A DNA stretch of 59,419 nt, counting the filler, from Nitrospirota bacterium (GTDB lineage Bacteria; JACPQY01): NCBI GenBank assembly GCA_016180645.1. It is 4 parts of 4 records of this genome, joined end to end, with 100 filler letters (N's around TTAATTAATTAA, not from the genome) between each part and the next. Parts side by side here need not be neighbours in the genome. Positions count along the whole stretch, not along the records: positions 24,083 to 36,631 come from JACPAV010000064.1; 3 more parts are not named here. The stretch is one strand, 5' to 3'. Positions within the stretch are counted from its first letter, which is position 1. The number at the start of each line of letters is the position of its first letter. The notes beneath the pieces are model-generated. The model searched no databases. It was not told the origin of the DNA and saw only the letters and a list, made by a program, of their open reading frames with translations. The translations under genes and the position numbers were made by a program. Below, one piece after another: positions 15,758 through 39,296 of the stretch.

Positions 15758-15869
15758 CGGTGATTGTGGGCACTTGCGCCCAATCTGCAAAAGGGCCGGT
15801 TGACCCGTGTGGGGCCGGTGTGGGGACGACCGGAGAAAAACTGGGCTCTTCAGTTACCCGGCGCGGGCT

Positions 15870-18460: not shown

Positions 18461-18807
18461 TGGAGGCGCCGGGAGTCGAACCCGGGTCCGAGGATACGCG
18501 GGGAAGGACGCCTACGTGCGTGTTCGGTGTTTTATTTTGTCCCGCCGTCCCCCACCGACAGGGTGCGGCGGGACTAGGTCCCAGTATTATCTCGATCGTC
18601 GCCCTGAGTCCGCGACGCCGACCTATCCCGCATTGTAACGCCCGTTCCAAGCCGGCAGGAGCGACCTGGGCGGACGCCTCAGCAGCTAACTAAGCCGCGA
18701 GAGGGAGTGCCGTTGTTTCGGCGTTTGTTGGTTCTCCCCCACTTACCCGGAGAGAGTTAGGGCACGCCATCTTTCCTGTTGTATCCGCGTCGAAACCATA
18801 CGCCCCC
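18461..18807 (-). ncRNA. ssrA: tmRNA, tag peptide (A)AETTALPLAA*
   Basis: 5' GGGGGCGTATGGTTTCGAC and 3' GGGTTCGACTCCCGGCGCCTCCA with G3:U70; internal GCC GAA ACA ACG GCA CTC CCT CTC GCG GCT TAG; TATACT upstream. Confidence 0.95.
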
Positions 18808-20516: not shown

Positions 20517-23500
20517 TCAGGGCAGGTTCGTAACCGGGACGGGGGTCAACCGATTGACCGTCGTGCCGTCGCCGAGTTGGCCGTACTGACCGGAGCCCCA
20601 GCATTTCACCATGCCATCGGATTGGAGGGAACAGGTGTGAACGTTGCCCCCCGCGATCCCGCTGGCGGCAGAAAGGGACGCCACCGGGACAGGCGTCGAC
20701 TTGTTCACGGTCGTCCCGTCCCCAAGCTGACCGTTGCCATTGCTCCCCCAGCATTTCACCGTGCCGTCGGAAAGAAGGGAACAGGTGTGATTGACGCCCC
20801 CCGCCACGGCGACAGCACCGCTGAGCGTCGACACAGCGACGGGGGTCGATTTGTTCACCGTCGTCCCGTCCCCAAGCTGACCGAAGGGATTGTACCCCCA
20901 GCATTTCACCGTGCCGTCGGAACGAAGGGAACAGGTGTGACTGTTGCCCGCCGCGATGGCGACAACACCGCTGAGCGTCGACACGGCCACGGGGGTCGAT
21001 TTGTTCGCCGTCGTCCCGTCCCCAAGCTGACCGTAGGGATTGTACCCCCAGCATTTCACCGTGCCGTCGGAAAGAAGGGAACAGGTGTGAACGTTGCCCC
21101 CCGAGACGGCGACAGCACCGCTGAGCGTCGACACGGCTACCGGCGTCGTCTTTTGCACCGTCGTCCCGTCCCCAACCTGACCGTTGCCATTGTACCCCCA
21201 GCATTTCACCGTGCCGTCGGAAAGAAGGGAACAGGTGTGGGTGGTGCCCCCCGCCACGGCGACAGCACCGCTGAGCGTCGACACGGCCACGGGGGTCGAC
21301 TTGTCCGCCGTCGTCCCGTTCCCAAGCTGACCGTTGCCATTCCACCCCCAGCATTTCACCGTGCCGTCGGAAAGAAGGGAACAGGTGTGATATTGGCCCC
21401 CCGCGATCCCGATGGCGGAAGAAAGAGACGCCACCGAGACAGGCGTCAACTTGTCGGCCGTCGTCCCGTCCCCAAGCTGACCGTAGAGATTGTACCCCCA
21501 GCATTTTACCGTGCCGTCGGAAAGGAGGGAACAGGTGTGAAGACCGAGGTGGTTGGTGAGGCCTTCGCGGAAGGGGCGGGCGGGGGCGCCGGAGGCGGTG
21601 GATTCGTGGAGATTGGGATTCCTTACGCCCATCGGACCCACGGCAAACGAGACGGCCACGGGCGTAGTCTTGCTCACCGTTGTCCCATCTCCAAGCTCGC
21701 CCTGGGGGCCAGCCCCCCAGCAGTTCACCGTCCCATTCGACAGGAGTGCGCAAACATGGAACTCCGCGGTCGAGATGGCAACGGCATTTGTGAGGGTGGA
21801 AACCGCCACGGGCGTCCACTTGTCAACGGTCGTCCCATCTCCCAATTGGCCAAAACTAGTTGCCGACCAGTAGTTCATGCCCCAGCATTTGACGGTCCCA
21901 TCCGAAAGGAGCGAGCAGGTGTCGAAACCGCCCGGGGAAACAGTTGCGGCATTTGTGAGGGTGGAAACGGCGACGGGCGTCCACTTGTCAACGGTCGTCC
22001 CATCCCCAAGCCTCCCGTAGGCGTTGCCTCCCCAGCACTTGACGGTCCCGTCGGACATGAGAGCGCACATGTGGCCGCTGCCGGCTGCCACTGCCACCGC
22101 GTTCGAGAGAGACGATACGGCCACGGGGGTCGTCTTCTGCAGCGTTGTCCCGTCGCCGATCTCCCCACTGAGATTGCGCCCCCAGCATTTCACTGACCCA
22201 TCCGACACCAGCGAACAGGCAACGTCGCCGCCGGAAGCCACTGCAATGGCACCCGTCAGGCTGGTAACGGCCACGGGCGTAGTCTTGTTCGCGGTGGTGC
22301 CGTCCCCCAACTGGCCATAGCTATTGATCCCCCAGCACTTGACCGATCCGTCCGAGATGAGGGCGCAGGTCTGGTAGGAGCCCCCTCCCGTCACGGCCAA
22401 GACGCTCGAGAGACTGGAGACCCCCACGGGGGTTGACGTGAGCGTCGCGGTGGTGCCGTTGCCCAACTGACCTTCCAGGTTGCGTCCCCAACATTCGACG
22501 GTCCCATCCGAAAGGAGCGCACAGGTATGCATATAGCCGCCGGTGACGGACACCGCGTTGGTAAGCGAGGAGACGGCCACGGGGGCTGATTTGTTCACCG
22601 TGGTACCATCCCCGATCTGGCCCTCCGCATTGCGTCCCCAGCACTTGACCGTGCCGTCCACCATGAGCGCACAGGCGGACTTGCCGATGTGACCCGAGAT
22701 GGCTTTCGCAACACCGGTGGTGGACCATGTGCGGGCGTATTTTTCGACGGTGTTGGTGTCCACGTTGCCGGCTTCGTCGCGGGCGCGGACGACGTAGTAC
22801 ACTTGGTTGCCGAACGTGAGCGAGCCGTCGCCGTAGTTGACGGCCCCGGCGGAGGTTGTGAACGTGGCGTTAAAACTTCCTTGGCAGTCCGCTTGAGGCG
22901 CCTCACGGCAGATCTGGTAGACGATGTTTCCAGTGGCCGTCACCGTGTCCGAACCGGCTGACCAAGCGAGGTTTACGTTGGTTTCGGAAGTGGCCGTGGC
23001 GCTTGTGAGGCCGGCGAACGTCGGCGCAGTCCAGTCGTTCGTCCACGTGATGTCCAGATTGTTCGCCGTTGAGTTTCCGTTCCCGGCGGCATCCACGCAG
23101 GCGATGTATCGGGTGTAAGCGGTATCCGCGTTGAGCGCATCGGTGAACTGGCAGGCGGTTGCGCTCGCGCAGGCGGTGCCGGTCCCCGAGTTGTAGGCGG
23201 AGTCGGTGGTGTACCATCGGCAGCCGGTGGTGCCGGAGACGGCATCCGTGGAGGTGAGGACGATGTCCGTATTCGAATCGTTTGTTGTGTCGTAATACGT
23301 CGTTGCGTTGTCCCCCTCGACGCTGGTGAGGGTGAGCGGCGGGGCGGTGTAGTCGTTCGTCCATGAGATGTCCAAGTTGTTCGCCGCGTCGTTCCCGTTC
23401 CCGGCGGCGTCTACGCAGGCGATGGAATATGTGTACGTGCTCCCCTCCGTGGCCGCCCCGGTGAACGAGCAGGATGTGCTTGAGGCGCAGGCGGTGCCGG

Positions 23501-23982
23501 TCCCTGCGTTGTAGGCCGAGTCGGATGTGTACCATCGGCAGCCGGTGGTGCCGGAGACGGCATCCGTGGAGGCGAGGACGATATCCGTGTTCGAATCGTT
23601 TACCGTGTCGTAATACGTGGACGCCGTATCGCCCTCCACATTGGTAAGCGTGAGCGGCGGGGCGGTGTAGTCGTTCGTCCATGAGATGTCCAAGTTGTTC
23701 GCCGCGTCGTTCCCGTTCCCCGCGGCGTCCACGCAGGCAATGTAGCGGTTGTAGGTGGTGCCTTCGGTGTCCACACCGGTGAAAGAGCACGAGGTGGCGC
23801 TTGCGCAGGCGGTGCCGGTGCCCGCGTCGTAGCCTGAGTCGGTTGTGTACCAGCGGCAGGCGGTGGTGCCGGAGGGGGTATCGGTGGAGGTGAGGACGAT
23901 GTCCGTGTTGGAGTCGTTTACCGTGTCGTAGTACGTTGAGGCCGTATCGCCCTCGACGCTGGTGAGCGTGAGGGGAGGGGCG
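20517..23982 (-). CDS. Large surface protein: Cys-containing ~106-aa repeats, FN3-like domain and RCC1/BLIP-II repeats (5' end cut by linker)
   Basis: About 14 HTCSLLSDGTVKCWG.N..GQLGDGT repeats; the frame stays open to the contig end at 23982. Confidence 0.92.
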
Positions 23983-24082: not shown

Positions 24083-24969
24083 CGCGTCATTCTTTGAGCC
24101 AGCGTCCGCCGGCCGGTTGTGAGGAAGAGGGCAGGGGAGGGCGAAGACGCCATCTCAGATTTGAAATTTGAGATTTCAGATGGAGGAGGGGAGGGGGCCG
24201 GCGAGGACGCCATTTCAGATTTCAGATTTGAAATCTCAGTTGAGGAGGGGGAGGGCAGGGGAGGGGATTTCAAACTCGTGGCTCGTGCAGTCAAGATTCG
24301 CTCCCGAATCTTGAGCCAGTCTCTCAGGTACGCCCACGCCTCGGGGCCGATCACCACGAAGTTGTTCTTGTCCGCTTCGCCTTTACCTTGGATCACCAGC
24401 GTGCGGATGCCGTCCCGCACGCGCAGGTCCGCCTCGTCGGCCCGCCAGGCTTCCACTTGGCGGAGGCCCGTCGTCGCGAGGAGGGCGATGAGCGCCCGGT
24501 TCCGGACTGCGGCGGAGCCCTCCCCGGTCCATGCGTCGATCATCCTTCGTACTTCCTCCGGCGTGAAGGCGTCCTTCAGATGGTGCCGACTCCGCCTTGC
24601 GCTCTTCACGCGGCCGACCACGACGCCGTGGTAGCCGAGGAAACTCATCACCGCGGCTTTGTAGAGTTGGATGGTGTTCGGCCGCAAAACGGCCGAGGGC
24701 GATGGGCGGTGGGCGATAGGCGATGGCAGGGAAGCTGTCGCTCCGTGCGGCTCGCGTCCCGGGTACGGTGCCGCTGCTTGCAGATGCCTGACGAACTCTA
24801 CCACGGCCTCTCTCGGGGTGGCGAAGGTTTTTCCTCTCAACCAAGCCGCGAACTTTTCGAGGGCGGTGCGATACGTCCGCCGCGTGTCGGCGCTGAAGGA
24901 GGGGTCGTTGAGGAAGGCCTCGATCCGGGCGAGGAGCGCGGACGGCGAAGCGAGAGCGAGGTCAGTCAT
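24083..24969 (-). CDS. Tyrosine recombinase/integrase (XerC/D-like), 3' end cut by linker
   Basis: SAM-like SADTRRTYRTAL, RNRALIALLATTGLRQVE (catalytic Arg), IQGKG. Confidence 0.88.
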
Positions 24970-25283
24970 GGGAAGATGTGGTCATGTAGTGATGGAGTCA
25001 TGGAATCATCTAACGGAGAAGAAGGACTCCGGGTCCGGCCACATCGCCACATGACTCCATGAACACATGAATACATGACTCCATTCCTCCTGAACTTTGC
25101 ACGGTTCTTCCCGCGTGCCTTCCTGTCTCTCTTGCCTCGCGCCTTTCGTCCGGCGCCCTGCGCCTTTTTCCATGACTATATCACAAATGAGGGTTAGTGA
25201 TAGTATGAAAATGGCGCATGACACATGACGCATGACCCATGACACAGGCCGAAAGAGCCCCAAAACAGCCCCAAAACGAAACC

Positions 25284-25312
25284 TTGCTTTTGTCGAACGG
25301 CTGAACTACAAT
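25284..25312 (+). promoter_or_regulatory. Sigma-70 promoter of the island operon
   Basis: TTGCTT-N17-TACAAT. Confidence 0.55.
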
Positions 25313-25463
25313 AAAGGAGCGTGACAAGGATGCAAAAGAGACACACGCACGGACGCCGCGCTACCCCAACCCACCGCCCAGGCCGCACCGCGATAGCCGC
25401 TCGCCCGAACGGCTTCGATCACGGAAAATCGGTCTCGACCTCAAGAGCCCTCTTTGCCGCATG

Positions 25464-25539
25464 ATCCCACCACCTCGAACAGCCCGCCGCTTGGCGGGCT
25501 CGAATTCTGCGGCCTCCGGCCGGTTCGAGGTGGTGGGAT
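25464..25539 (+). promoter_or_regulatory. Leader stem-loop covering the SD and start codon
   Basis: 17-bp perfect inverted repeat ATCCCACCACCTCGAAC / GTTCGAGGTGGTGGGAT enclosing hairpin AGCCCGCC-GCTT-GGCGGGCT. Confidence 0.65.
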
Positions 25540-25735
25540 GAAAGGCCGGATCCTGGGAGAGCGGGGAAAGGTCACGTTCTTTTTCGAGTGCCGCGAATGC
25601 AAGGAGAAGATCAGACTCCCGCTCTACTTCGGCGTGAAGAGGATTTGGAACAACTCCACCAGCCCGACGTTGCAGAAACTCTATCCGCACCAGGGCCACA
25701 GGGTGGGCGTGCGATGGGAGTTTGAGCCGGTGTAG
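25538..25735 (+). CDS. Small CxxC hypothetical protein
   Basis: MKGRILGE...CREC...HQGH; SD GAGGTGG; stop abuts the next ATG. Confidence 0.55.
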   Translation: MKGRILGERGKVTFFFECRECKEKIRLPLYFGVKRIWNNSTSPTLQKLYPHQGHRVGVRWEFEPV

Positions 25736-25930
25736 ATGGGCAAGAAACAATACCGGGGTCACTATTGCCGGGTTTGCGGCCGAATACGCGCGAATGAACG
25801 ATTCAGCGGCAAGGGCCACGCGAGACATGTCTGTAGGGACTGCGAACTCAAGATGCGCGCCGAGGCTCGCAAGAGGAGGAAACCCGACCGCGTAGGCTCG
25901 GAAGGGGCGGGACAGGCCGGAAGATCGTGA
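25736..25930 (+). CDS. Small zinc-ribbon protein
   Basis: GHYCRVCGR...FSGKGH..HVCRDC; overlaps the next start (GTGA). Confidence 0.75.
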   Translation: MGKKQYRGHYCRVCGRIRANERFSGKGHARHVCRDCELKMRAEARKRRKPDRVGSEGAGQAGRS

Positions 25931-26634
25931 ACATCCCGTTGTCGGATCGACCGATCGTTCATCTCAAGAGCATGAACACCACAGAGATGGCCCGGCGGCA
26001 TCTGGAGGAGTGGTGGGCGCCAAGGATAAAGCCCTGGGCCGCGGAGACAGGCAGGAATCTCTTCGCGGAAGTACTGAGGACGATCCGTTCGGTTCGGTTT
26101 TGTGGGTATGGGCACGGCGGCTGGATCTACAGCTCGGTGGCCTTCGAGGTCGCAACCCTCCTCACCGTTGAGGTCGAGCAGGCCTTCAGCTACATCGACA
26201 GGGCAGCCAAGCCGGCGCATACGCCGTGCGTCCCCAAGAAAAAGCAGCTCCGGCGCCTGGCGGAGACGCTCTCAAAAGACAATCTGGTCAAACCTTCTCT
26301 CGACTACCCACCCTGCGAGTGCTGTCTCGAGCGGATCGAGAAACGTTTCTGCAAGAAATGGCAGGGGCTGGATCACCTTTGGTGGACGAGGCTCCGGGAG
26401 ATCCTGCCGGAGTATCCGATAGACGAGCGTTTCGAGAAACGGGGCTTCCGGTACGAACTCGATGAGGTCACGCAGTCTGCCATGCAGTGGGTCGTGGAGA
26501 CCTACTTGGAAGAACTTGCAAAGGCCGGAGCGGATGGACGCGAGGAGCTGCCGCCACCGTCCTTCGTCCGGGGCCTGGCGGCCTCGGTCTTCGCGGGTCG
26601 CCCCAGCAAGAAAGAGCGGGCCGCAGCCCATTAG
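25927..26634 (+). CDS. Hypothetical protein, distant paralog of 28840 and 29685
   Basis: WAPRIKPW...GRNLF...C...CECC...HLWWTRL..I..EY. Confidence 0.75.
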   Translation: MNIPLSDRPIVHLKSMNTTEMARRHLEEWWAPRIKPWAAETGRNLFAEVLRTIRSVRFCGYGHGGWIYSSVAFEVATLLTVEVEQAFSYIDRAAKPAHTPCVPKKKQLRRLAETLSKDNLVKPSLDYPPCECCLERIEKRFCKKWQGLDHLWWTRLREILPEYPIDERFEKRGFRYELDEVTQSAMQWVVETYLEELAKAGADGREELPPPSFVRGLAASVFAGRPSKKERAAAH

Positions 26635-26639
26635 GCAGG

Positions 26640-27065
26640 ATGCGACACTACACTTGGATCCCCCGTGCAGCAGACATCGCCTTCGAGCTGATGAAGGTGC
26701 CAGCCCTTCTGGATCGCAAGGACGTGGAGAAGCTTTTCAAGATCCCCAAGACGAGCGCGGTCTACCTCATGCGCGCGGCGGGAGGAGAGAAGAAGGGCAT
26801 CTCGATGGTCATCAGCCGGGACCGGCTCACGGCTTTCGTGAACGGCAAAGTGAATGGGGAGCCATCCCGAAGGCCCGCGCTGGGCGAGTACGTCATCGAA
26901 GGGGAACCCCTGAAGGAGGATGAGTGGCTTGAGAAAGTGGCCAACGGCGTCAGGATCGCCGCGAAGTCCCGGGCCGAGTTCGTGCGGAATCTGAAACGCC
27001 TCACGCAGGCTCTCCAGGACCCGATTGAGCGAGAGAAGATGTTCCGGGAACTCCATCTTCAATAG
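26640..27065 (+). CDS. Hypothetical protein, possibly HTH/excisionase-like
   Basis: LLDRKDVEKLFKIPKTSAVYLM helix-turn-helix-like segment; operon spacing. Confidence 0.6.
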   Translation: MRHYTWIPRAADIAFELMKVPALLDRKDVEKLFKIPKTSAVYLMRAAGGEKKGISMVISRDRLTAFVNGKVNGEPSRRPALGEYVIEGEPLKEDEWLEKVANGVRIAAKSRAEFVRNLKRLTQALQDPIEREKMFRELHLQ

Positions 27066-27075
27066 GATATTACGT

Positions 27076-27828
27076 ATGAGCGCGGCGGCTCTCCACCCTC
27101 TCTTCGATCTCAAGCAGAAGCTTGAGGTCCTGATCGCGCTCGTCACCGGACCGGACGAGGAAAAGCGCGAGACGGCAGCCTTCGAGGCTTCGATCGCGTC
27201 CCATGCCTCGCAGCTCACGCTCCTCGCCTCAAACCTGCCGCACGCTCCCCGGGCGATTGAACTGGCCTGCGACCTCCTGGAACTGGTGGCGCTTCTCATC
27301 CTCCTGAAAAGCACGCGCCTCGTCGAGCGACTCGGAAGATCTCCGGACGACCCCGCGGCGCGAGAGATCCTTCTCAAGCATATCCTCGAGAAAGCGCGCG
27401 CCCTCCGCGACGAGATCGATGTCCGCCTGTTGCCGGTGAGGCCCGTTCCGCCGCCCGGGCGCTATGGTGAGGTCCTGGCGGAAGGCGGATCGGATACCGG
27501 TGGTCCTCGCATGGAATGGGTGTCGTTCGAGGAGCTTGCCGACAGCCTCGACCAGATCCTTTCCGAACTCGAATCGAGGCCCCACGAGGTGCAGATGGAC
27601 CGCCCGACGGTACGGGAGATGATCGAGAAGTTGCTCGCCCTCCTGGCCGCACGAACCAGGTTCATCCTCCAGGCCGTGTGGGGTATCGAAAGAGCCGAGC
27701 GGGTGACGGCGTTCCTGGCCGCCCTTGATCTCACGTATCAGCGAAAGGCGCGGATTGAGCAGCGTGAGGCCGGAGGGGACGTCTATGTCACACGGGGCAC
27801 GGCGGGCGATCCTGGTGCCGGAGCATGA
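27076..27828 (+). CDS. scpA: Divergent ScpA (kleisin)-like protein
   Basis: IELACDLLELVALLILLKSTRLV, VSFEELADSL, TVREMIEKLL and VTAFLAALDL...ARIEQREAGGDVYV match the ScpA N-terminal helix and C-terminal winged helix. Confidence 0.8.
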   Translation: MSAAALHPLFDLKQKLEVLIALVTGPDEEKRETAAFEASIASHASQLTLLASNLPHAPRAIELACDLLELVALLILLKSTRLVERLGRSPDDPAAREILLKHILEKARALRDEIDVRLLPVRPVPPPGRYGEVLAEGGSDTGGPRMEWVSFEELADSLDQILSELESRPHEVQMDRPTVREMIEKLLALLAARTRFILQAVWGIERAERVTAFLAALDLTYQRKARIEQREAGGDVYVTRGTAGDPGAGA

Positions 27829-28298
27829 AGCAGAATCCCGTCGCGAGGTCCGAAGCGGATTCCGCACCGCAGGTCGAAGGCAACCTCCGTTGGATGTCGG
27901 TCGGCGAGTTTCGCATCGAGAGAAGATCCCTCGTGCCACCCTCTCTCTCCGGCCTCCTGAATCGGCAACCCTGCATCTATCGACTTCTTTTTCTTGACCA
28001 AGCTCGGATGAACGAAGCGTGGGTGGGCCAAAGCCGGAGCTTGGGGCCCGACCTGCGGGCGTTCGCAAAGGGTGGAGGTGCGATGCCGAAGGAACTCAGG
28101 AGCCATGTGCTGAGCGCGCTCCGGAGCGGGAGGAGGGTTTGGGTCGAGGTGGTCGAGCCGAGCCGGCTCAAGTTGCATACCGGCAATGCGGACCTGAAAG
28201 ACGACGATACAAGAGCGCTGGTTCGCCAACTCGCTCTCCTCCAGACGGCCGCGACGGTGAAGAAGGTCTTGGAGTTCGGACGCAAGGGCTGGTCGTAG
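27825..28298 (+). CDS. Hypothetical protein with degenerate GIY-YIG-like motif
   Basis: PCIYRL...AWVGQSRSL; ATGA overlap with scpA. Confidence 0.6.
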   Translation: MKQNPVARSEADSAPQVEGNLRWMSVGEFRIERRSLVPPSLSGLLNRQPCIYRLLFLDQARMNEAWVGQSRSLGPDLRAFAKGGGAMPKELRSHVLSALRSGRRVWVEVVEPSRLKLHTGNADLKDDDTRALVRQLALLQTAATVKKVLEFGRKGWS

Positions 28299-28299
28299 C

Positions 28300-28782
28300 G
28301 TGACCGTGGAATCGACTGAGGCCGACCGTCCGAGACAAATATGCGCCGTCCTCATCGGGTCGGGCAGGGCGCTCGCCCCAGCGGAGATCGGCCAAGTGCT
28401 TGGGATCGAGACCCATGACGTGGAGAGCGTGATGGAGCATGTCAAGGATCGGCTTGCCGGCGTCGGCCTCGCGCTCGTCTCGGACGAGAAGGGGAGATGG
28501 CTCGTCGCGGTGGGCGCGGCGGGACGTGTGATGGTCGCGCGGCTCAACGGAGACCCGCTGGGACGTAGGCAACTTTCTACCGAGGCGGCCGAAACGCTCG
28601 CTTTGCTTCAGGAGAAAGGACCGCTCACCATCAAAGAGATGGCCCGCATCCGCGGCGCGAATCCGAGAAATGCCGTCGAGACATTGCGTGCTCTCGGCCT
28701 TGTCCGGCGCGCTGGCCGCTCGCGGGGCAGGGGAGGGGCGTGGCTTTACAGGGTTTCGGCGACCGTACCGGATGGCTTGTGA
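28300..28782 (+). CDS. scpB: Divergent ScpB (KITE)-like protein
   Basis: ICAVLIGSGRAL, LSTEAAETLALL..KGPLTIKEMARIRG, ETLRALGLV...GR...WLY. Confidence 0.82.
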   Translation: MTVESTEADRPRQICAVLIGSGRALAPAEIGQVLGIETHDVESVMEHVKDRLAGVGLALVSDEKGRWLVAVGAAGRVMVARLNGDPLGRRQLSTEAAETLALLQEKGPLTIKEMARIRGANPRNAVETLRALGLVRRAGRSRGRGGAWLYRVSATVPDGL

Positions 28783-28839
28783 GGGGCTAAGGAATGTGAG
28801 AAAGCTGTCTCGGTTGGAGCGCGTTGGTAGGAAGGTGAC

Positions 28840-29688
28840 ATGAATCCTTTCGTGCGAATGCCTGGCAGGCAGAGGGAGCCCGAATGGCTCCAGGCCGCAG
28901 CCTCCCTCGATCATATGTTGGAGTTCTGGGAGCCCCGGATCAAGCCGTGGATGGAGCGCGCTGGGAGGGCTTACTTCGATGTCGCTCGAGACCTTGCCCA
29001 AAAGGTCACGCACTGCCAGCCGCCCTCCGCCCAATCGCGCCGGGCGATCCTGATGATCCTCCCGGTAGCGGAGGTGTATGCGTGGGCTGCTTCCCTTCAC
29101 GACTGGTGCAGGCGCGCAGGGTTCTGGGGCGACGCCGGGGAGACCTTCCTGTGGGTCCGCCGCAACGTGGCCGAGAAGCTCGACGATGATGAGCGAACGG
29201 ACCTCATGCTTTTCGGGGAGTGCAAGGAATGCGTGGAGGAGGCGGGCGTCCATTCGAACGCCTCCCCGAAGAGGCCGTTCCATGTCTGGAACAAGCGCCT
29301 CCCTTCGATCGTGAGGGAGTACGCGAAGAGATACCCCCTGACGGACTACTATCCGCGTGAGCTGATCACCGTGATGACGCTCGTCGGCGAGGAAGCCATG
29401 AGGGGCTATCTTGGCGGCTTTCGGGAGGCGATAGGGATCGATCCCGACCTTCCGGCCGAGGAGCAATTCCGTAGCGATCTGGCCCACGCGATTCGACACG
29501 TTTACACGGCTGCGGACAACCCCGATGTCATGGTGATCGAAAGCTGGGGGCCGAGCAAGAAGTGGGAAGAGGGATGGAGACCGGAGTGGGCGAGGGTAGC
29601 GGAGCCGGCTGCCGATGCGCCTCCGGATGTCCGGAAAAAGCGCCGCAGTCGGACCCAAAGGGCGGGAGCGGGGGCACGAACGCGGTGA
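28840..29688 (+). CDS. Hypothetical protein (Cys/His family, copy 2)
   Basis: Close paralog of the next gene: DLMLFGECKEC, PREL, VIESWGPSK.WE.GWRP.W; SD GAAGG. Confidence 0.85.
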   Translation: MNPFVRMPGRQREPEWLQAAASLDHMLEFWEPRIKPWMERAGRAYFDVARDLAQKVTHCQPPSAQSRRAILMILPVAEVYAWAASLHDWCRRAGFWGDAGETFLWVRRNVAEKLDDDERTDLMLFGECKECVEEAGVHSNASPKRPFHVWNKRLPSIVREYAKRYPLTDYYPRELITVMTLVGEEAMRGYLGGFREAIGIDPDLPAEEQFRSDLAHAIRHVYTAADNPDVMVIESWGPSKKWEEGWRPEWARVAEPAADAPPDVRKKRRSRTQRAGAGARTR

Positions 29689-30641
29689 TATCTGGAAAGG
29701 CCAATCCGGCCCACCTCGATTTGGAATTGGCCGTGGCCACTCCCAAGCCGAAAGACCGTCCTCGCCGTTCCCGCAGATTCGCCTCGCCTCCCCCCAGCAT
29801 GAAAAGTTCGATCGGCGGTTTTGCGCGATATCTTCGTCGAACACCGCCCTGGCTTGAGGGGGCTCAATTCGTCGACCACATGCTTCAGTTCTGGCAACCC
29901 CGCCTCTGCCCTTCGATGCGAGAGGCTGGACGCGCCTACTTCGACGTCGCCCTCAGAATCCTTGGTCGGATCAAACATTGTCGGCCGATGTCGGCCGCGA
30001 CACATCGGGCGATCCTCACGATCCTGCCCGTGCCGGAAGCGTACTGGCTGGCTCGAACACTTGCCAACTCCTGCCGCGAGCAAGGGTTCTGGGAGGATGG
30101 CATGGAGGCGTTTCCCATCGTTCGGAAGAATATCGCGGACAAGGTGTACGACGATGAGAGGCGTCGGGACCTCATGCTCTTCGGGGAGTGCAAGGAGTGC
30201 CTGGCCCGGTCCGCGCCTTTGACGCTGGAGCATCCCAAGCGGCCTTTCTTCATTTGGTCCAGGCGTGTCGAGCCGCTCACGCTCGAGTATTCGAAGAACT
30301 ATGCCTTCACGGATTTCTATCCAAGGGAGCTCATCAGCGTCGTCTCCATGGTGGGGGATGAGATCATGAAGGGGTACATCGCAGGATACGAGGAGGCTCG
30401 TCTCCGCGACCCTGACCTGCTGGACACGGCCGTGTTCCGTCGGGATCTGGCTCACGCCATCCGGCACGTGGCTCAAGCAGCAGACAATCCCAACCATCTT
30501 GTCATCGAAAGCTGGGGGCCGAGCAAGATGTGGGAAAGCGGCTGGAGACCGGACTGGGCGCGCGATCCTATTTCACCCATCAGGAGCCAACGCCGGGCAA
30601 AGGTGGGAAGGAGGCGAGATGCCGTACGTGCTCTTCCGTGA
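29685..30641 (+). CDS. Hypothetical protein (Cys/His family, copy 3)
   Basis: Tandem duplicate of 28840; GTGA overlap start (alternative ATG at 29799). Confidence 0.85.
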   Translation: MISGKANPAHLDLELAVATPKPKDRPRRSRRFASPPPSMKSSIGGFARYLRRTPPWLEGAQFVDHMLQFWQPRLCPSMREAGRAYFDVALRILGRIKHCRPMSAATHRAILTILPVPEAYWLARTLANSCREQGFWEDGMEAFPIVRKNIADKVYDDERRRDLMLFGECKECLARSAPLTLEHPKRPFFIWSRRVEPLTLEYSKNYAFTDFYPRELISVVSMVGDEIMKGYIAGYEEARLRDPDLLDTAVFRRDLAHAIRHVAQAADNPNHLVIESWGPSKMWESGWRPDWARDPISPIRSQRRAKVGRRRDAVRALP

Positions 30642-31914
30642 CCATCTGCCCGAGATCGCCGAGCGTGAGACCCGGTCGATCACCGTCTTGCCCGAATCCA
30701 ATCTGGGCCTTCCGCCGGGGAACTATGGGTTCATCGAAATGTTCTGCGATGAGACGGGCTGCGACTGTCGGCGCGTTTTCTTCTACGTCGTCTGTTCGTT
30801 CCGCAAGGAGGTCCAGGCGGTTGTGGCGTGGGGTTGGGAAGACCCCGCGTTCTACGCGAAATGGATGAGGAGCGGTGATGCTCGTGATGTTGCAAACCTC
30901 AAGGGGCCTATTCTGAATCTGGGCAGCCCTGAAACGGAACTGGCCCCCGGCATCCTGGCGATAGTCGAGAACATTCTGCTGAGGGATGCCGCCTACGTCG
31001 ATCGCGTCAAGAGACATTATGCCCTGTTCAGGGACAAGGTTGATGGCTGTGTGCACGGCCGCCTCGGGGATGGACCGAGCGCGGAGGAGTTGGTCCCCAC
31101 AGCGAGTCCCTCCGGAAGGAAAGTCGGACGCAACGAGCCGTGCCCCTGTGGGAGTGGAAAGAAGTACAAGAAGTGCTGCTTGGGGAAGGAGGCGTCGGAG
31201 CCTGAGTTCGAGGGTCTCGACGACGCAATCGATTCCGTTGGAACGAACGCCGAGGATGCCGCCCACGTGAATCGCCCGAGAAGTCGCAGACCCCGCAGGC
31301 GGGTTCAGTTCGCGAGGGTATTCCAGTTCAAGATCACTCTCCACGGGACGAATCCTCCGATCTGGAGGCGCATCCTGGTCCCGGAGAACTACTCATTCTG
31401 GGACCTGCATGTGGCCATCCAGGACGCGATGGGGTGGAAGGACTATCACCTGCATGTCTTCCGGATGTGTCGTGCCGGAAAGGGGAAGGAAAAGCTGATC
31501 GGTATTCCGGATGAGGAGTGGCAGGAGGAGTTTCCCACCTTGCCGGGTTGGAAACAGGCCATCGCGGACTGGGTCACCCTGAATCATCCCACGGCTGAAT
31601 ATGAGTATGATTTCGGAGACAGCTGGGAGCATGAGGTGGCGCTGGAAGAGATTATTCCGCGCGATCCCGCCGTGGCCTACCCTTCTTGCACGGAGGGCGC
31701 GCTATTGGCCCCTCCGGAGGATGTCGGGGGCATCGGCGGCTACTACGATTTCCTCGAGGCCGTGCGGGATGTGAACCATCCCGAGCACGACGAATGGCTG
31801 ACGTGGGCCGGTGGCGCCTACGATCCCGATTCCTTCGATCCCCGGAAGGTGCATTTCGACGATCCCGATGAAAGATGGTCCATTGCCTTTGAAACCATGG
31901 GCGAGGAGATTTGA
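30619..31914 (+). CDS. SEC-C motif and plasmid pRiA4b ORF-3 family fusion protein
   Basis: EMFCDETGCDCRRVF, GRNEPCPCGSGKKYKKCC, PPIWRRI..LHVAIQDAMGW.DYHLH, YEYDFGDSW, PPEDVGG. Confidence 0.9.
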   Translation: MPYVLFRDHLPEIAERETRSITVLPESNLGLPPGNYGFIEMFCDETGCDCRRVFFYVVCSFRKEVQAVVAWGWEDPAFYAKWMRSGDARDVANLKGPILNLGSPETELAPGILAIVENILLRDAAYVDRVKRHYALFRDKVDGCVHGRLGDGPSAEELVPTASPSGRKVGRNEPCPCGSGKKYKKCCLGKEASEPEFEGLDDAIDSVGTNAEDAAHVNRPRSRRPRRRVQFARVFQFKITLHGTNPPIWRRILVPENYSFWDLHVAIQDAMGWKDYHLHVFRMCRAGKGKEKLIGIPDEEWQEEFPTLPGWKQAIADWVTLNHPTAEYEYDFGDSWEHEVALEEIIPRDPAVAYPSCTEGALLAPPEDVGGIGGYYDFLEAVRDVNHPEHDEWLTWAGGAYDPDSFDPRKVHFDDPDERWSIAFETMGEEI

Positions 31915-32135
31915 TGGCTCGTGTTGCCGAAGTGGGGCGCGGCTTGTGCTTCACGCCCCTTCGGGAGCGTATGATAACCCCGCGCTTATTATGAAATTCT
32001 TCACGAAAATGCGGAAAAGGCCCGGACGATTGCCCGGAAAGGAAAGCCCAAGCACCCCCGGCAGACAAATTGGATGTCCCCTTGTCCGGCTTCCGGCCCG
32101 GGAATGCATCGCCGAGTGAAATCTGAGCCGCCCCG

Positions 32136-33320
32136 TTGACCGGGCCAGCCGATTCCATGCGAGGGGATCCATCGAGGTCCGGTCGCAATAGACCCAGACT
32201 GCGCGTTCTGGCTCTTCGTGGTACGCCCAAGGAGACCATCCAGTGTCTTCTCTGCGGGCTCCGGATGAAGAACCTGGGGATTCATATTGTTCGGGTCCAT
32301 CGAATGAGGTCTGAAGACTACAAACGCCGGTTCGGGGTCGTTTACGTGGCAAGTCCGGCTGCTCGGAAAGCCGTGAGTCGGGCAATTACCCGATGGACCC
32401 CCGCCAGGATCATAGCGGAACTCCGGCGCCTCACGACATCGGCGCACGGCCCGCGCCAACTGCGGCCGCAACGCGTTGCGACGCACCGGCGACTTCAGAC
32501 ACGTTGCCGCTACCATTTCGGTTCGTATAAGGCAGCACTCCAGGCCGCCGGGCTCGACCTCCACGTGTCCAGCCGCCGCTTCAAATGGGACCGCGCGCGT
32601 CTGGTCGCTGAAATCAGATCGCGCCGACGGCAGGGACTTCCGCTCAACGCCAACGCAGTCCCCCACGGCATCAAGCGTGCGGCCGCGAGACACTTCGGAG
32701 GATATGGGGTGGCCATCGAAGCTGCCGGGATCCGGTATGCCACGATCAGAAAGACCAAGCCTTATGATCTGAAGCTCATCATCCGCGCAATTCGCAAGAG
32801 GTGGGCGTTGGGGAAACCCCTCAATCATAAGGTGGTCAAATTGGAGGACACATGGCTTGCCCAGGGCGCCCGGTTGCGGTTCGGAAGCTGGGACGGAGCC
32901 CTCCGGGCCGCCGGCTTCGATCCGAAGAAGATTCGGTTCCGGAAAAAGTGGTCCCCTGCGGAGGTGATCAGCCGGATCCGGTCCCGATCTCAATCTGGCC
33001 AACCGATGAACCTGAGGGCCGTATTTTTCGGTGATTCATCGCTCTACGCAGCCGCCTGCCGGTACTTCGGCACGTGGCAGAAGGCCGTGAATGAGGCGGC
33101 GTTGGATTATGAAGCTATCCGTCTGAGAAAAGTCTGGACCATGCAGGATGTCCTGGACAGCATCCGCAGGCAAGCGGCCCTTGGCATTCCGCCCCTCAAG
33201 GCGGCGATGGCAGAGCGGGAAAGTACACTCCCCAGCATCGCCCGAAGGTACTTCGGGACATGGAGGGCGGCTGTTGGCGCCGCAGGGCTGGATCCGGCCG
33301 GCCCGGCGGAGGCTGGATGA
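32136..33320 (+). CDS. Ros/MucR-like zinc finger plus five helical repeats, probable DNA-binding protein
   Basis: CLLCG..MKNLGIHI.RVH...DYKRRFG; five W...II..IR...A.R.FG.W..A..AAG repeats; start uncertain. Confidence 0.75.
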   Translation: MTGPADSMRGDPSRSGRNRPRLRVLALRGTPKETIQCLLCGLRMKNLGIHIVRVHRMRSEDYKRRFGVVYVASPAARKAVSRAITRWTPARIIAELRRLTTSAHGPRQLRPQRVATHRRLQTRCRYHFGSYKAALQAAGLDLHVSSRRFKWDRARLVAEIRSRRRQGLPLNANAVPHGIKRAAARHFGGYGVAIEAAGIRYATIRKTKPYDLKLIIRAIRKRWALGKPLNHKVVKLEDTWLAQGARLRFGSWDGALRAAGFDPKKIRFRKKWSPAEVISRIRSRSQSGQPMNLRAVFFGDSSLYAAACRYFGTWQKAVNEAALDYEAIRLRKVWTMQDVLDSIRRQAALGIPPLKAAMAERESTLPSIARRYFGTWRAAVGAAGLDPAGPAEAG

Positions 33321-33587
33321 TTACAGCCACAAGTAGGCCGGTAGGTCACCTCGATGTAATATTTTGGGTCGGTTGCACCAGAATGGTGCTCCGAGACGGG
33401 TTCGTGGGTAGTCTCGTCTCTGAGTTGATCCGAGGGCCTGTGGGAATCTGGACATGCGTAGCGGTGTGCAACGTCATGTGAAAACGATGAATTCAAAACC
33501 CTTGTTGTGCACTTTTGCAGAAATACGCGCCCAAGGCCAGTTTGTGATGGAGGAGGTTCCGGAGGATGAGTCGACGGGGGACAGGTC

Positions 33588-34067
33588 GTGACGGCCCCAG
33601 CCAGGGACAGTGCCGGTGTGCGAATCCCTCCTCCCCTCATCGTGGCGGTCGGGATCGGACTGGGCTTTTTCCTTGAGCGCCTGAAACCCTTTCAGATTCT
33701 TGCCTTGTTCGATCCGTTGCCCATGCGTATCGCGGGCGGGGCGCTGATTGCGTTGGGCGCATCGATCCTGCTCCTCACGGTGCGGCACTTCAAACTGGCC
33801 AGGACGGAGCTCAAGCCTTGGAGGCCGTCCGCCTCACTCATACGGAAAGGGCCACTGAGAGTTTCCCGGAACCCCATCTACCTCGCGTTTCTGCTTGTCC
33901 AGTTCGGCGCCGGGATCTTGACGCGAAACACGTGGGTCCTGCTTTTCTCCATTCCCGTGTATCTGGTGCTGCGATTCTATGTGATCGCTCGCGAGGAACG
34001 ATACCTTGAACGTGCTTTCGGAAAGGCGTACCTCGAATACAAGACCGGCGTACGCCGGTGGCTGTGA
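33588..34067 (+). CDS. Isoprenylcysteine carboxyl methyltransferase (ICMT/PEMT) family protein
   Basis: IPPP, GP...SRNPIYL, REERYLERAFG.AY.EY...VRRW. Confidence 0.9.
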   Translation: MTAPARDSAGVRIPPPLIVAVGIGLGFFLERLKPFQILALFDPLPMRIAGGALIALGASILLLTVRHFKLARTELKPWRPSASLIRKGPLRVSRNPIYLAFLLVQFGAGILTRNTWVLLFSIPVYLVLRFYVIAREERYLERAFGKAYLEYKTGVRRWL

Positions 34068-34229
34068 AGGATGGCGCGTTGAAGGGCGGGAACCACGGTC
34101 GAATCCTTGGCGACCCCCGAGATGCTGCGCCATCCCGCACATGGAAGGTTTTCGGGAAAACCTGCTCGGGGAAGCATCGCCTCGAAGCGAGGCGACACTC
34201 CGACTCCGTGAAAGCCTCGGTCGAGTAGC

Positions 34230-34832
34230 ATGATCAAGGGCCCGCTCCTTCAATCCACGCTCGCCGCCATCGGCGTCGGATACGTGCTGGGGTTTTTCGG
34301 CGAGGGGGTCCGGGACGTGCTCTCGCGCGTGTCCAAGTGGTGCATCTGGGGGGCGTGGGGGATGATCCTCCTGGCCGCCATTCTGTACAGGGGATTTGGG
34401 GTGGAGGGCGCGGCGGCTTGGGTGGGTATCGTGGGCGTGAGTTCGCTCGGTCTCGGCGCCTCGCTGACCTTTGCTGCGCTCCTTTCCCTCTTCACGGAAG
34501 TGGTGGTCGACAACATCAAGGAGGCGCGGCGTCCCGGAAAGAGTCGGCAGGAAAAGGCCGAGGACGCCGCGTTGATCGCGGGGCCGGAAGTAATCCGGGC
34601 TCAGCGGCGGCGGGATCTCGCGGCTTGGGCGCTGATGTTCGCCGGGGTCGGCGTGGCTGTCTTTCTTGTATTTGTTTTCGTGCCGTCCTTCGCCGAGGTC
34701 GTCATGGGTTGGATGCGCATGGAGAAACTGACCGAAGAGACGGGGATTGTCCATTCCGGGAACTACGCATGGATCGGGCTGGCGCTGGGCGCCTTCATGC
34801 TGGGCGCCGCCTACTGGCTGAGGCGCTTATAG
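34230..34832 (+). CDS. Hypothetical membrane protein
   Basis: About five hydrophobic segments. Confidence 0.65.
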   Translation: MIKGPLLQSTLAAIGVGYVLGFFGEGVRDVLSRVSKWCIWGAWGMILLAAILYRGFGVEGAAAWVGIVGVSSLGLGASLTFAALLSLFTEVVVDNIKEARRPGKSRQEKAEDAALIAGPEVIRAQRRRDLAAWALMFAGVGVAVFLVFVFVPSFAEVVMGWMRMEKLTEETGIVHSGNYAWIGLALGAFMLGAAYWLRRL

Positions 34833-35165
34833 GAGTCGTCCGTTGCGCGTGTCCCGTTGGCACGCCGATCCTGGAAATAGATGACAGCCAGAACCGCCAG
34901 ACCGATGCCCGCTCCGGTAAGGTAAAGCGTCATGTAGTAGGTACTAAGATCCACGTTCAGGCTCCTTTTTCAAGGTAAACGGCTACAGACACAAATATGG
35001 CCGTGACGAAGAGCCCGGCCATCATAACCTTGGCGTTTCCGAGTTGTGTAGCGACAAACGGCGCAACGACGGTACCCCCAAACGTCAGCTTGGCGCATCG
35101 TAGAAGAACTTCGCCAGACTCGTCCGCTGTGTCTTGTTCATTGCCATGACCAAAGTGTAGCACGA

Positions 35166-35231
35166 TTACGGAAGATTTGTGACGGGGACGGGGGTGGAGC
35201 GGTTGACGGTGGTCCGGTCGCCGAGTTGGCC
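35166..35231 (-). repeat. Orphan 66-bp variant copy of an RCC1 gene 3' end
   Basis: Encodes GQLGDRTTVNRSTPVPVTNLP*; the upstream gene ends GQLGDGTSTQRLTPVPVTNLP*. Confidence 0.88.
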
Positions 35232-35282
35232 GGCGGGGTCGAGAAGTATCAAGTCAAGACTTGACCCGTGCGCCTTTTCCGA

Positions 35283-36631
35283 TTACGGAAGATTTGTGAC
35301 GGGGACGGGGGTGAGGCGTTGGGTGCTCGTGCCGTCGCCCAGTTGGCCGTAGAGATTCCTCCCCCAGCATTTCACCGTCCCGTCGGAAAGAAGGGAACAG
35401 GTGTGATCGATGCCCCCCGCCACGGCCACACCGCCCGAAAGTGATGACACGGCGGTAGGCGTCAGGCGATCGGCGCTGGTTCCGTCCCCAAGCTGACCGT
35501 AGACATTGCGCCCCCAGCATTTCACCGTGCCGTCGGAGAGAAGGGAACAGGTGTGATTTAGGCCCCCTGCCACGGCCACACCGCCCGACAGGCTGCTCAC
35601 GGCCACGGGGGTCGATTTGTCCACCAGCCCCCCGTCCCCAAGCTGACCGAAGACATTGCGCCCCCAGCATTTCACCGTGCCGTCGGAGAGAAGGGAACAG
35701 CTGTGATCGGCGCCCACTGTGACCGCCACGCCGCCCGTGAGGGAGCTCACGGCCACGGGGGTCAATTTGTCCACCGTCGTCCCGTCCCCAAGCCGACCGC
35801 CGTAATTGTATCCCCAGCATTTGACCGTGCCGTCGGAAAGAAGGGAACAGGTGTGATTGCTGCCCCCCGTGACGGCCACGCCACCGGAGAGTGAAGACAC
35901 GGCGGTGGGCGTTGGGCGGTTGCCGGTGGTTCCGTCCCCAAGCTGACCTTGGGCATTGGCCCCCCAGCATTTGACCGTGCCGTCGGATAGAAGGGAACAG
36001 GTGTGATTGCTGCCCCCCGCGACGGCCACACCGCCCGACAGGCTGCTCACGGCCACGGGGGTCGATTTGTCCCCCCCCGTCCCGTCCCCAAGCTGACCGT
36101 AGAAATTGCGCCCCCAGCATTTCACCGTGCCGTCGGATAGAAGGGAACAGGTGTGCACGTTGCCCCCCGCCACAGCCACACCACCCGACAGGCTGCTCAC
36201 GGCCACGGGGGTCGATTTGTCCCCCCCCGTCCCGGCCCCAAGCTGGCCGTAGATATTGTACCCCCAGCATTTCACCGTGCCGTCCGAGACGAGTGCGCAG
36301 GTGTGATTGCCGAGGTGGTTGGTGATGCCTTCGCGGAAGGGGCGGGCGGGGGCGCCGGAGGCGGTGGATTCGTGGAGGCGGGGGAGTTTGACGGCCATCG
36401 GGCCGACTAGTGAGGACACGGCGGTGGGCGTTAGGCGGTCGGCGGTCGTCCCGTCCCCAAGCTGACCGTAGAGATTGCGTCCCCAGCATTTCACCGTGCC
36501 GTCGGAAAGAAGGGAACAGGTGTGATTTTGGGCCCCCGCCACGGCCACACCGCCCGAAAGTGATGACACGGCGGTAGGCGTCAGGCGATTGGCGGTGGTT
36601 CCGTCCCCAAGCTGACCGTAGAGATTGTCCC
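35283..36631 (-). CDS. RCC1/BLIP-II repeat protein (5' end cut by linker), paralog of 20517-23982
   Basis: At least 8 HTCSLLSDGTVKCWG.N..GQLGDG repeats and the same HESTASGAPARPFREG linker. Confidence 0.92.
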
Positions 36632-36731: not shown

Positions 36732-36848
36732 GGGTTCGGAAACCGTGGCATCGTTGACCCTTTGTTGGACGATATCAGCAGGATGCTCTCCGGTCTGATT
36801 CGCCACGTTGAGATGCGGAACGGGCGGGGAAGGGGCGGAGGGACATGA
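36732..36848 (+). CDS. C-terminal end of a probable four-helix-bundle (23S rRNA IVP-like) protein
   Basis: GFGNRGIVDPLLDDISRMLSGLIRH...*; its stop overlaps the next ATG. Confidence 0.6.
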   Translation, partial: GFGNRGIVDPLLDDISRMLSGLIRHVEMRNGRGRGGGT

Positions 36849-39292: not shown

Positions 39293-39296
39293 CTCG

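Follow-up and report, generated by a model that had tools for sequence, protein, structure and literature searches.

To our knowledge, kleisin and KITE proteins occur only as partners of SMC ATPases, every characterised kleisin/KITE pair works with such an ATPase, and the accessory sets of bacteria bring their own. Canonical ScpA binds the SMC head through its C-terminal winged helix and the SMC neck through its N-terminal helical domain. In Wadjet, MksBEFG and MukBEF, the ATPase gene shares an operon with the kleisin and KITE genes, and Wadjet and MksBEFG modules are often located on islands. As far as the available excerpts of the cited papers go, MksBEFG is a plasmid-defence SMC system (PMC10123090), and bacterial ScpA binds ScpB through its middle segment; the archaeal ScpB homologues described with it do not bind ScpA and may function outside the Smc-kleisin ring, the ScpAs of those archaea lacking the middle segment (PMC7055376). 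A precedent for mobile elements targeting host SMC complexes is provided by T7 gp5.9, which acts on MukBEF and is described, in the excerpt available, as a DNA mimic rather than a homologue of an SMC subunit (PMC7617805). A search of main-text literature found neither an account of an SMC-less ScpAB carried by an element nor a subunit-mimic inhibitor of SMC complexes.

The locus analysed here encodes a ScpA-like protein, a basic middle protein and a ScpB-like protein. The trio resembles Smc-ScpAB (PF02616, PF04079; 3w6j, 4i98, 5h66) in the length of the kleisin, its collinearity and its C-terminal winged helix, in a KITE with the two ScpB winged helices, and in the location of the genes in one operon. 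It differs from Smc-ScpAB in that the kleisin-like and KITE-like proteins both score under the equivalog cut-offs, the N-terminal ScpA motif is unrecognisable, the ScpB-like protein is basic and shorter at the C-terminus, a third gene lies in between, and the neighbours are a recombinase and orphan genes. With Wadjet (JetABCD) and MksBEFG it would share the character of an accessory kleisin and KITE module outside the housekeeping condensin; in contrast to those systems, the operon is without an SMC ATPase and without a Toprim nuclease, the KITE is of the ScpB type and not DUF4194, and there was no PADLOC match. The ScpA-like protein has a middle region of bacterial length, in contrast to those archaeal ScpAs, and the two outer proteins of the trio differ from T7 gp5.9 in being related to SMC-complex subunits.

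The window, meaning the whole stretch of DNA that was analysed (59,419 nucleotides, filler included), is made up of four contigs joined by N runs, and the trio is located on one of these, a contig of 12,549 bp at positions 24083-36631. The source organism is an uncultured groundwater bacterium. The stretch was present in four DNA runs, all from one study and labelled as groundwater metagenome; only DNA runs were listed, and none of RNA. The features of the contig that bear on the trio are collected in Table 1.

Table 1. Predicted genes of the trio and its surroundings, in window coordinates
Feature	Coordinates	Strand	Evidence
Tyrosine recombinase, 3' part cut by the contig end	24083..24969	-	Phage_integrase E 4.3e-7; Phage_int_SAM_1 E 6.7e-5
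64-aa zinc-ribbon protein with CxxC..CxxC, opening the plus-strand operon	25736..25930	+	Zn_ribbon_Nudix E 0.0017, below cut-off
Orphan X1, distantly paralogous to X2 and X3	25927..26634	+	BLASTP to X2, 25% identity, E 6e-6
141-aa protein directly upstream of the ScpA-like gene	26640..27065	+	DnaB_bind E 0.014, sub-threshold
ScpA-like protein, predicted divergent kleisin, 250 aa	27076..27828	+	Pfam, NCBIfam, PDB, hhalign, ESM Atlas
Middle protein, basic orphan, 157 aa, pI 10.6, CIY-x13-WVG	27825..28298	+	No family match
ScpB-like protein, predicted KITE, 160 aa (158 if started at GTG 28306), pI 10.1	28300..28782	+	PF04079, PDB, hhalign
Orphan X2	28840..29688	+	X3 53% identical
Orphan X3, paralogue of X2	29799..30641	+	No Pfam family at E <= 0.01
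SEC-C motif and PRiA4_ORF3-domain protein, end of the plus-strand run	30619..31914	+	PF07929 E 2.9e-60; PF02810 E 8.1e-10

Several statements of the initial annotation could be checked directly on this contig. The contig size of 12.5 kb was correct, and the motifs quoted were found, for ScpA as VALLILLKS and AFLAALDL..IEQ..GDVYV and for ScpB as LSTEAAETLA..GPLT..E..IRG and LGLV..GR..LY, in the translations of the first and last genes of the trio. The tight coupling of the ORFs was likewise confirmed: the ScpA-like ATG follows the stop of the upstream ORF after 10 nt, an ATGA overlap, with GGAG 5 nt upstream, joins the ScpA-like stop to the start of the middle gene, and the start of the ScpB-like gene lies 1 nt (GTG 28300) or 7 nt (GTG 28306) beyond the TAG of the middle gene. 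The GC3 of the trio genes (0.74-0.76) resembles that of the housekeeping genes of the window (0.66-0.82), so that the frames look coding. The annotated absence of an SMC/JetC ATPase also held, since none was found with Pfam, NCBIfam or PADLOC in the ORFs of the 12.5-kb contig; an additional 20 large ORFs from the remaining three contigs of the window were checked, and none encoded an SMC-like protein.

The first gene of the trio is predicted to encode a divergent ScpA-type kleisin, an identification based on the C-terminal domain, the hhalign comparison and the ESM Atlas neighbours. The match to PF02616 (E 1e-4, 22.8 bits, residues 195-256) lies below the Pfam cut-off of 24.6 bits and that to NF000994 (E 1e-4, 22.1 bits) below its cut-off of 234, while among PDB sequences the C-terminal domains of ScpA were matched (5h66_C, E 4.8e-5; 5xg3_C, E 8.6e-5). 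Alignment to canonical ScpA with hhalign gave a probability of 95.2% (E 2.5e-8) over residues 60-240, and ScpA was the annotation in 28/30 ESM Atlas neighbours. The best-conserved part is the C-terminal winged helix characteristic of kleisins. The kleisin helix of highest conservation (..TFLAxLEL..Q..) aligns with ..AFLAALDL..IEQ.., and the LLKS helix is also recognisable. The protein is collinear over its full length with a 256-aa bacterial ScpA, with residues 1-59 placed at zero confidence only, by a forced alignment. In these N-terminal ~60 residues, the canonical SMC-neck-binding motif (FEGPLDLLLHLI-type helix) was unrecognisable by hhalign; three helices were placed in residues 1-59 by a low-confidence AF2 model. 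The model as a whole was poor (pLDDT 50.1), and Foldseek with it found nothing in the PDB at E <= 0.001. The unalignable N-terminus may mean that the protein does not close a ring, or that it has no SMC partner at all.

The third gene is clearly predicted to encode a ScpB-type KITE with two winged helices, at a level far beyond chance. PF04079 was matched with E 1.3e-17 and 64.2 bits (cut-off 27.4, passed) over residues 13-154, yet TIGR00281 gave 44 bits, short of its equivalog cut-off of 89.2. The PDB matches were to ScpB (3w6j_B, E 1.3e-13; 4i98_B, E 3.3e-7), and the hhalign probability against canonical ScpB was 95.6%. Both outer proteins of the trio were thus as the initial annotation had placed them, a kleisin and a KITE far from canonical. 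The ScpB-like protein stops right after the second winged helix; the aligned canonical ScpBs extend some 30-40 residues more. All five members of the ScpB-like family are basic (pI 8.45-10.11), whereas acidic values (pI 4.49-5.18) were obtained for 4/5 sampled canonical ScpBs. Basic charge as a discriminator of the family was weakened by the remaining canonical ScpB, that of locus L087, with a pI of 9.37.

In the GIY-YIG signature, the GIY and YIG motifs precede a conserved Arg, with Glu and Asn after it. The middle protein had been described as a 157-aa ORF with a GIY-YIG-like motif, and the ORF and its CIY-x13-WVG motif were both found, but no GIY-YIG family model was matched. There was no match to Pfam (E <= 1), NCBIfam, PADLOC, PHROGs or PDB sequences (E <= 10). 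Against eight GIY-YIG domains from five genomes, hhalign aligned only residues 45-81 (P 0.034, probability 1.5%), a stretch that comprises CIY..WVG..R; in this weak alignment, R78 fell on one template Arg position and nothing was aligned at the Glu and Asn places. Six of 30 ESM Atlas matches belonged to clusters in which GIY-YIG occurs in 12% of members. The AF2 model was poor (pLDDT 46.7) and yielded nothing in the PDB with Foldseek at E <= 0.001, and in the VIA wide search the highest Z was 4.3 and none of the 50 entries shown was a GIY-YIG protein. The GIY-YIG likeness thus appears to be at the level of the motif only. A role as DNA-binding adaptor may be considered on the basis of the charge of the protein (pI 10.6). 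The pI is 10.6-11.5 across 3/3 family members, one of which is a fragment. In a complex prediction of the ScpA-like protein with two copies of the ScpB-like protein, the middle protein as scored partner received 0.00, a value that speaks neither for nor against binding.

A tyrosine recombinase divergent from and upstream of the operon, as annotated, was confirmed by the Phage_integrase match, which covers profile positions 3-86 of 172, together with the SAM-like N-terminal domain. This gene represents the site-specific recombinase by which an integrative element is recognised. Its sequence includes a low-complexity insertion in which the unit EISN[LF]KSEMASSP recurs. The 141-aa protein preceding the ScpA-like protein may be a helix-turn-helix protein, as judged by eye and without a family match. 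X1 matched no family in Pfam, NCBIfam or PADLOC, and X2 none in Pfam, NCBIfam, PADLOC or PHROGs; by tblastn, X2 had no match in plasmids or viral contigs (viral: one pattern match, none confirmed). The ATG of the SEC-C/PRiA4_ORF3 gene is preceded by a strong GGAAGGAGG. At its two ends the contig breaks off within the recombinase gene and within a repeat-rich RCC1 gene, both ends lying in repeats, and no tRNA gene occurs along its 12.5 kb. An element, if there is one, extends beyond the contig. Neither excision joints nor element ends were found across the operon in contigs of four runs, and contig depth stayed level over the operon and the membrane-protein genes beside it. Composition gave no sign of recent transfer, as GC and GC3 match the rest of the window. 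The setting of the trio looks like an integrase-associated island, and it is called mobile solely on account of the recombinase and the orphan-rich context.

The trio family is extremely rare. One relative was found for the ScpA-like protein, two, among 1.84 billion representatives, for the middle protein and four for the ScpB-like protein, and no family relatives were found in the GTDB, JGI, viral, plasmid or phage sets. Relatives lie on contigs of 79,487, 15,088, 11,847 and 4,356 bp, and two on contigs of 2,340 bp that may be one and the same. Pattern matches to the ScpA-like protein in contigs of GTDB species genomes (249) and in viral contigs (47) were not confirmed in any case; the same was true of the middle protein in JGI metagenome contigs (408) and viral contigs (46), and of the ScpB-like family in viral contigs (49). 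One of 337 pattern matches to the ScpB-like family in metagenome contigs was confirmed and proved to be an ordinary ScpB of 229 aa with 28% identity. The ORF beside this metagenome ScpB looks, by eye, like an ATP-synthase gamma gene. The ScpB-like protein had no tblastn match in plasmids and phages, and a profile search of 401 genomes of the phylum of genome G001 found no member of its family; the profile gave a single match in each of 106 genomes, the top one, at 60 bits, being a canonical ScpB of 179 aa.

One canonical smc, scpA and scpB each were found in the five nearest genomes searched (SufS identity up to 65%), with one SMC hinge per genome in 5/5. In these genomes, canonical ScpA scored 120-138 bits on PF02616 against 22.8 for the ScpA-like protein, and canonical ScpB 165-198 bits on PF04079 (5/5 genomes) against 64.2 for the ScpB-like protein, so that the canonical proteins score three to six times as high as those of the trio. 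Because the canonical set occurs once in each of these genomes and with far higher scores, the comparison, which covers these five genomes, indirectly favours an accessory pair over a housekeeping one; the rarity of the trio family points the same way. The initial annotation had noted that housekeeping scpA and scpB are usually adjacent; in 3/3 canonical loci in which both ORFs were aligned (L082-L084), the two genes overlap with no intervening gene, unlike those of the trio.

The trio is tentatively explained as an accessory ScpAB-type sub-complex that likely works with an Smc ATPase from another locus, most probably that of the host, a reading that we regard as plausible while falling somewhat short of probable. 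One translationally coupled operon on the apparent integrase-associated island would make all three proteins, and the divergent kleisin, the KITE (presumably a dimer) and the lineage-specific basic third protein would form the sub-complex. As the ScpA-like protein keeps the head-docking winged helix, its N-terminal neck motif is unrecognisable and no SMC is encoded in cis, an SMC ATPase from elsewhere would be the most likely partner, most probably the host Smc, which the sub-complex would serve with alternative or competing non-SMC subunits. Homology, gene order, coupling, rarity, the lack of an SMC gene on the contig and the canonical sets of the nearest genomes searched are observations, whereas the formation of a complex, its docking on Smc and an effect of the trio on condensin are what we infer. 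The reprogramming or poisoning of host condensin, or an action against Wadjet, as proposed in the initial annotation, would be conjectural. A more specific proposal is that the mobile island encodes mimics of condensin non-SMC subunits together with a basic DNA-binding helper. With a head-binding winged helix but without the neck-binding end, the mimic of the kleisin would occupy the heads of the host Smc without closing the ring and would thereby disable or redirect condensin or an SMC-based defence; this proposal is considered quite unlikely.

The partner ATPase could instead be a dedicated one. As the contig ends ~3 kb upstream and ~8 kb downstream of the trio, such a gene could lie off the contig, and the trio would then belong to a complete and new system of the SMC type, such as a Wadjet/MksBEFG-like defence or maintenance system, with its ATPase beyond the contig ends or elsewhere on the element. 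The truncation of the contig in the recombinase and repeat-rich RCC1 genes leaves room for this, a non-canonical ScpA-like N-terminus would be expected from co-evolution with a different ATPase, and the general knowledge that characterised pairs work with an SMC ATPase points the same way. However, no SMC-like ATPase was found within the plus-strand run 25736-31914 or in the 5 kb beyond it, unlike in the known operons, PADLOC reported no Wadjet or Mks component, and the KITE is of the ScpB type (PF04079) rather than JetB/MksE, DUF4194 being matched with E 0.19 only. A complete system is judged rather unlikely. The apparent loss of the N-terminal motif can also be taken to mean that the trio has left SMC biology altogether, and that a kleisin-derived scaffold and two basic proteins form an SMC-independent nucleic-acid-binding complex serving the island in regulation, DNA bridging or maintenance. 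The basic charge of the ScpB-like family (5/5) and the middle protein (3/3), set against mostly acidic canonical ScpBs (4/5), agrees with such a role, and precedents, within the excerpts available, are found in the archaeal ScpB homologues (PMC7055376) and in the eukaryotic EID family, which is described as related to the Nse4 kleisin and has members able to interact with MAGE proteins (PMC3335016). Charge by itself does not separate the two groups, given the basic L087 ScpB, and the best-conserved part of the ScpA-like protein is the very winged helix with a known SMC-head-binding role. A complex of this kind is likewise judged rather unlikely.

A further explanation is that the trio is the only scpA-scpB of the organism, a fast-evolving pair between which a lineage-specific gene has been inserted. 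The native-like composition and GC3 would be in keeping with this, as would the flat depth over the operon and the adjoining membrane-protein genes. Against it, the ScpA-like protein scores 22.8 bits where canonical ScpA reached 108-141 bits on PF02616 across nine GTDB genomes, despite conserved window genes that are ordinary (identity to GTDB genomes 73% for citrate synthase and 65% for SufS). Many orthologues would also be expected of a housekeeping gene in a sampled lineage, and one to four were found, with no family member among the 249 GTDB pattern matches; the neighbours, moreover, are the recombinase and orphans and not the genes that flank canonical scpAB. This explanation is considered very unlikely.

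If the trio were the only scpAB of its genome, it would be no more than a housekeeping pair that evolves fast and has gained a gene in between. If the subunit-mimic proposal were true, it would add to the ways in which a mobile element can take over an SMC motor a route of which no description was found. If, as we tentatively prefer, the trio is an accessory set, a second set of subunits that moves horizontally could serve the Smc of the cell, or block it; alternatively, the locus would represent a bacterial kleisin-KITE pair with a life outside SMC complexes. Either outcome would be relevant to the study of both SMC complexes and mobile elements.

The ScpA-like, middle and ScpB-like genes are located on the third of the four contigs joined by N runs (24083-36631, 12,549 bp), and the stretch was present in four DNA sequencing runs, which come from a single study and are labelled as groundwater metagenome. 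They belong to a plus-strand run of nine head-to-tail genes (25736-31914; see table). The ScpA-like stop and the middle-gene start have ATGA in common, preceded by GGAG, and the middle-gene stop is separated from the ScpB-like start by 1 or 7 nt.

Genes and other features of the window, with positions counted along the joined contigs
Feature	Coordinates	Strand	Remarks
SufB/D-type ORF	3222-5474		750 aa; SufBD domains begin only at residue ~400
tRNA-Asp gene	15681-15758		contig 2, not near trio
tmRNA gene	18461-18807		contig 2, not near trio; tag AETTALPLAA
RCC1-repeat protein	20517-23774		large; terminates contig 2
Tyrosine recombinase	24083-24969	divergent	upstream of run; truncated by contig end
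Zinc-ribbon protein	run starts 25736	+	gene 1; 64 aa
Orphan X1	25927-26634	+	gene 2
141-aa protein		+	gene 3; helix-turn-helix look, by reading of sequence alone
ScpA-like	27076-27828	+	gene 4
Middle gene	27825-28298	+	gene 5; 157 aa
ScpB-like	28300 or 28306 to 28782	+	gene 6
Orphan X2	28840-29688	+	gene 7
Orphan X3	29799-30641	+	gene 8
SEC-C + PRiA4_ORF3 protein	run ends 31914	+	last gene
394-aa protein	32136-33320
RCC1-repeat protein	35283-36569		large; terminates contig 3

The identity of the ScpB-like protein was established most firmly. Both of its winged helices are covered by PF04079 (E 1.3e-17, 64.2 bits against a cut-off of 27.4), a profile of its five-member family matched solved ScpB structures (3w6j_B, E 1.3e-13; 4i98_B, E 3.3e-7), and hhalign of this profile with canonical ScpB gave 95.6% probability. 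The divergent ScpB of the initial annotation was thereby borne out; the protein scored 44 bits, below the NCBIfam equivalog cut-off of 89.2 bits. Evidence for ScpA identity is weaker. Matches to PF02616 (E 1e-4; 22.8 bits, below the 24.6 cut-off) and NF000994 were confined to the C-terminal winged helix, which also matched C-domains of ScpA structures in the PDB (E about 5e-5). When profiles were compared, residues 60-240, a stretch that takes in the LLKS helix, the middle region and the winged helix, matched five canonical ScpAs at 95.2% probability (E 2.5e-8). ScpA accounted for 28 of the 30 nearest clusters in the ESM Atlas. A forced alignment with canonical ScpA was collinear over the full length, with zero confidence over the first ~60 residues, so that the FEGPLDLLLHLI-type conserved N-terminal helix of canonical ScpAs was not recognisable in it. 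The annotated divergent ScpA therefore also held, and both a kleisin match and a winged-helix KITE match, the lack of which had been named as refuting the annotation, were found. We conclude that the pair represents a genuine kleisin and a genuine KITE of the ScpAB type, each strongly diverged from the canonical proteins.

The middle protein had been described as GIY-YIG-like. Six of its 30 ESM neighbours were clusters with PF01541 on 12% of members. No match was found in Pfam, NCBIfam, PADLOC, PHROGs or PDB sequences, and hhalign against eight GIY-YIG domains from five genomes covered residues 45-81 only (RQPCIY..WVGQSRSL..R; P 0.034, 1.5% probability), with no residues aligned at the catalytic Glu/Asn positions. 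The AF2 model was poor (pLDDT 46.7), and fold searches with it, using Foldseek or the VIA wide search, returned no usable match. Support for the putative GIY-YIG identity is thin. With a pI of 10.6, the middle protein is strongly basic. The five ScpB-like proteins all have basic pI values (8.45-10.11), against acidic values in four of five canonical ScpBs sampled; the remaining one, L087, is basic (pI 9.37). The ScpA-like proteins have a pI of 5.3-5.6, versus 4.57-4.76 in four of five canonical ScpAs sampled, the fifth (pI 6.56) being an over-long 340-aa ORF call. The charges of the ScpB-like and ScpA-like proteins are weakly consistent with direct nucleic-acid binding.

The family is rare. 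When 1.84 billion representatives were searched in full with HMMER, two middle-protein relatives were recovered, P0004 (78% identical) and P0005 (a 90-aa fragment, 62%); the ScpA-like protein had one relative (55%) among 8,000 scored candidates and the ScpB-like protein four (54-60%) among 1,913. P0002 (ScpA-like) and P0010 (ScpB-like) are each on a 2,340-bp contig, possibly the same one, and the contigs with the other ScpB-like relatives measure 4.4 to 79 kb. Searches of GTDB species genomes, JGI metagenome contigs, viral contigs, plasmids and phages, and of 401 genomes belonging to the phylum of genome G001, recovered no member. GC3 of the trio genes (0.74-0.76) is similar to the values for housekeeping genes in other parts of the window. 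The region has a native-like composition, and neither element ends nor excision joints were seen, which is evidence against recent transfer.

Ordinary relatives were found for the SufS (65% identity) and citrate synthase (73%) of the window, and the five genomes whose SufS matched best served for comparison. Each has one SMC hinge, one ScpB (165-198 bits) and one ScpA (120-138 bits). In the three canonical loci with both ORFs aligned (L082-L084), scpA and scpB directly overlap, flanked by ORFs that, by our reading of the sequence alone, resemble trpS and a pseudouridine synthase gene. These canonical sets and their gene order, together with the rarity of the trio and its absence from other collections, indirectly favour a putative accessory rather than housekeeping set; that the trio contains the only scpAB pair of its genome, evolving fast, is very improbable.

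Orphans X1, X2 and X3 are paralogues that bracket the trio within its operon. X2 and X3 share 53% identity and X1 is distantly related (25%, E 6e-6). No Pfam, NCBIfam, PADLOC or PHROG family matched any of them, and X2 had no match in plasmids or viral contigs. The recombinase has an inserted low-complexity segment in which the unit EISN[LF]KSEMASSP recurs, and several short variant contigs with many differences over 24083-24907 in all four runs suggest several related copies in the community. Extra depth in bins 27016-27434, 30787-31205 and 31625-32043 (for example 49.7, 68.1 and 51.6 against a flat 34.8 in sequencing run X3, unrelated to orphan X3) and loose ends at 27362, 27429 and 29013 continuing into unlike sequence indicate that the same community may also hold copies partly resembling the ScpA-like 5' part and the PRiA4-domain gene. 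In the 394-aa protein, a ROS/MucR-type zinc-finger match (E 1.9e-5, just below cut-off) is combined with at least three homing-endonuclease-associated repeats (PF18780, E 1.8e-22). A 10- to 30-fold depth excess and many internal joints over the RCC1-repeat gene of contig 3 in the sequencing runs show it to be a repeat family that breaks assembly. On contig 4, the region 36845-54115 carries five consecutive large ORFs (687-931 aa), none with a Pfam family above cut-off and three with weak Glucodextran_B matches. Next come an NHL-repeat protein and an ATPase of the conjugation type with a TraC/TraG-P-loop match (51575-54115, E 5e-41), so the same bin may include a conjugative element. The SufB/D-type ORF may have its GTG start listed too far upstream, or a long N-terminal extension.

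We tentatively propose, as the best of the readings considered, that the ScpA-like and ScpB-like proteins with a third basic subunit would form an accessory sub-complex of the ScpAB type. It would rely on an SMC ATPase from another locus, in all likelihood the host Smc, and act as alternative or competing non-SMC subunits. A dedicated ATPase located off-contig is considered unlikely, and an SMC-independent DNA-binding complex has a similarly low probability. The boldest version of the accessory sub-complex, in which the ScpA-like protein would be a ring-opening decoy, is quite improbable; there is room for it because the head-binding winged helix is kept and the neck motif apparently lost. Such a decoy would be a subunit mimic, whereas the viral MukBEF inhibitor already known is described as a DNA mimic (PMC7617805). 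Full-text literature searches turned up neither an SMC-less ScpAB carried by an element nor inhibitors of bacterial SMC complexes that mimic a subunit. With a function that we infer entirely, the trio module is real, rare and oddly built.
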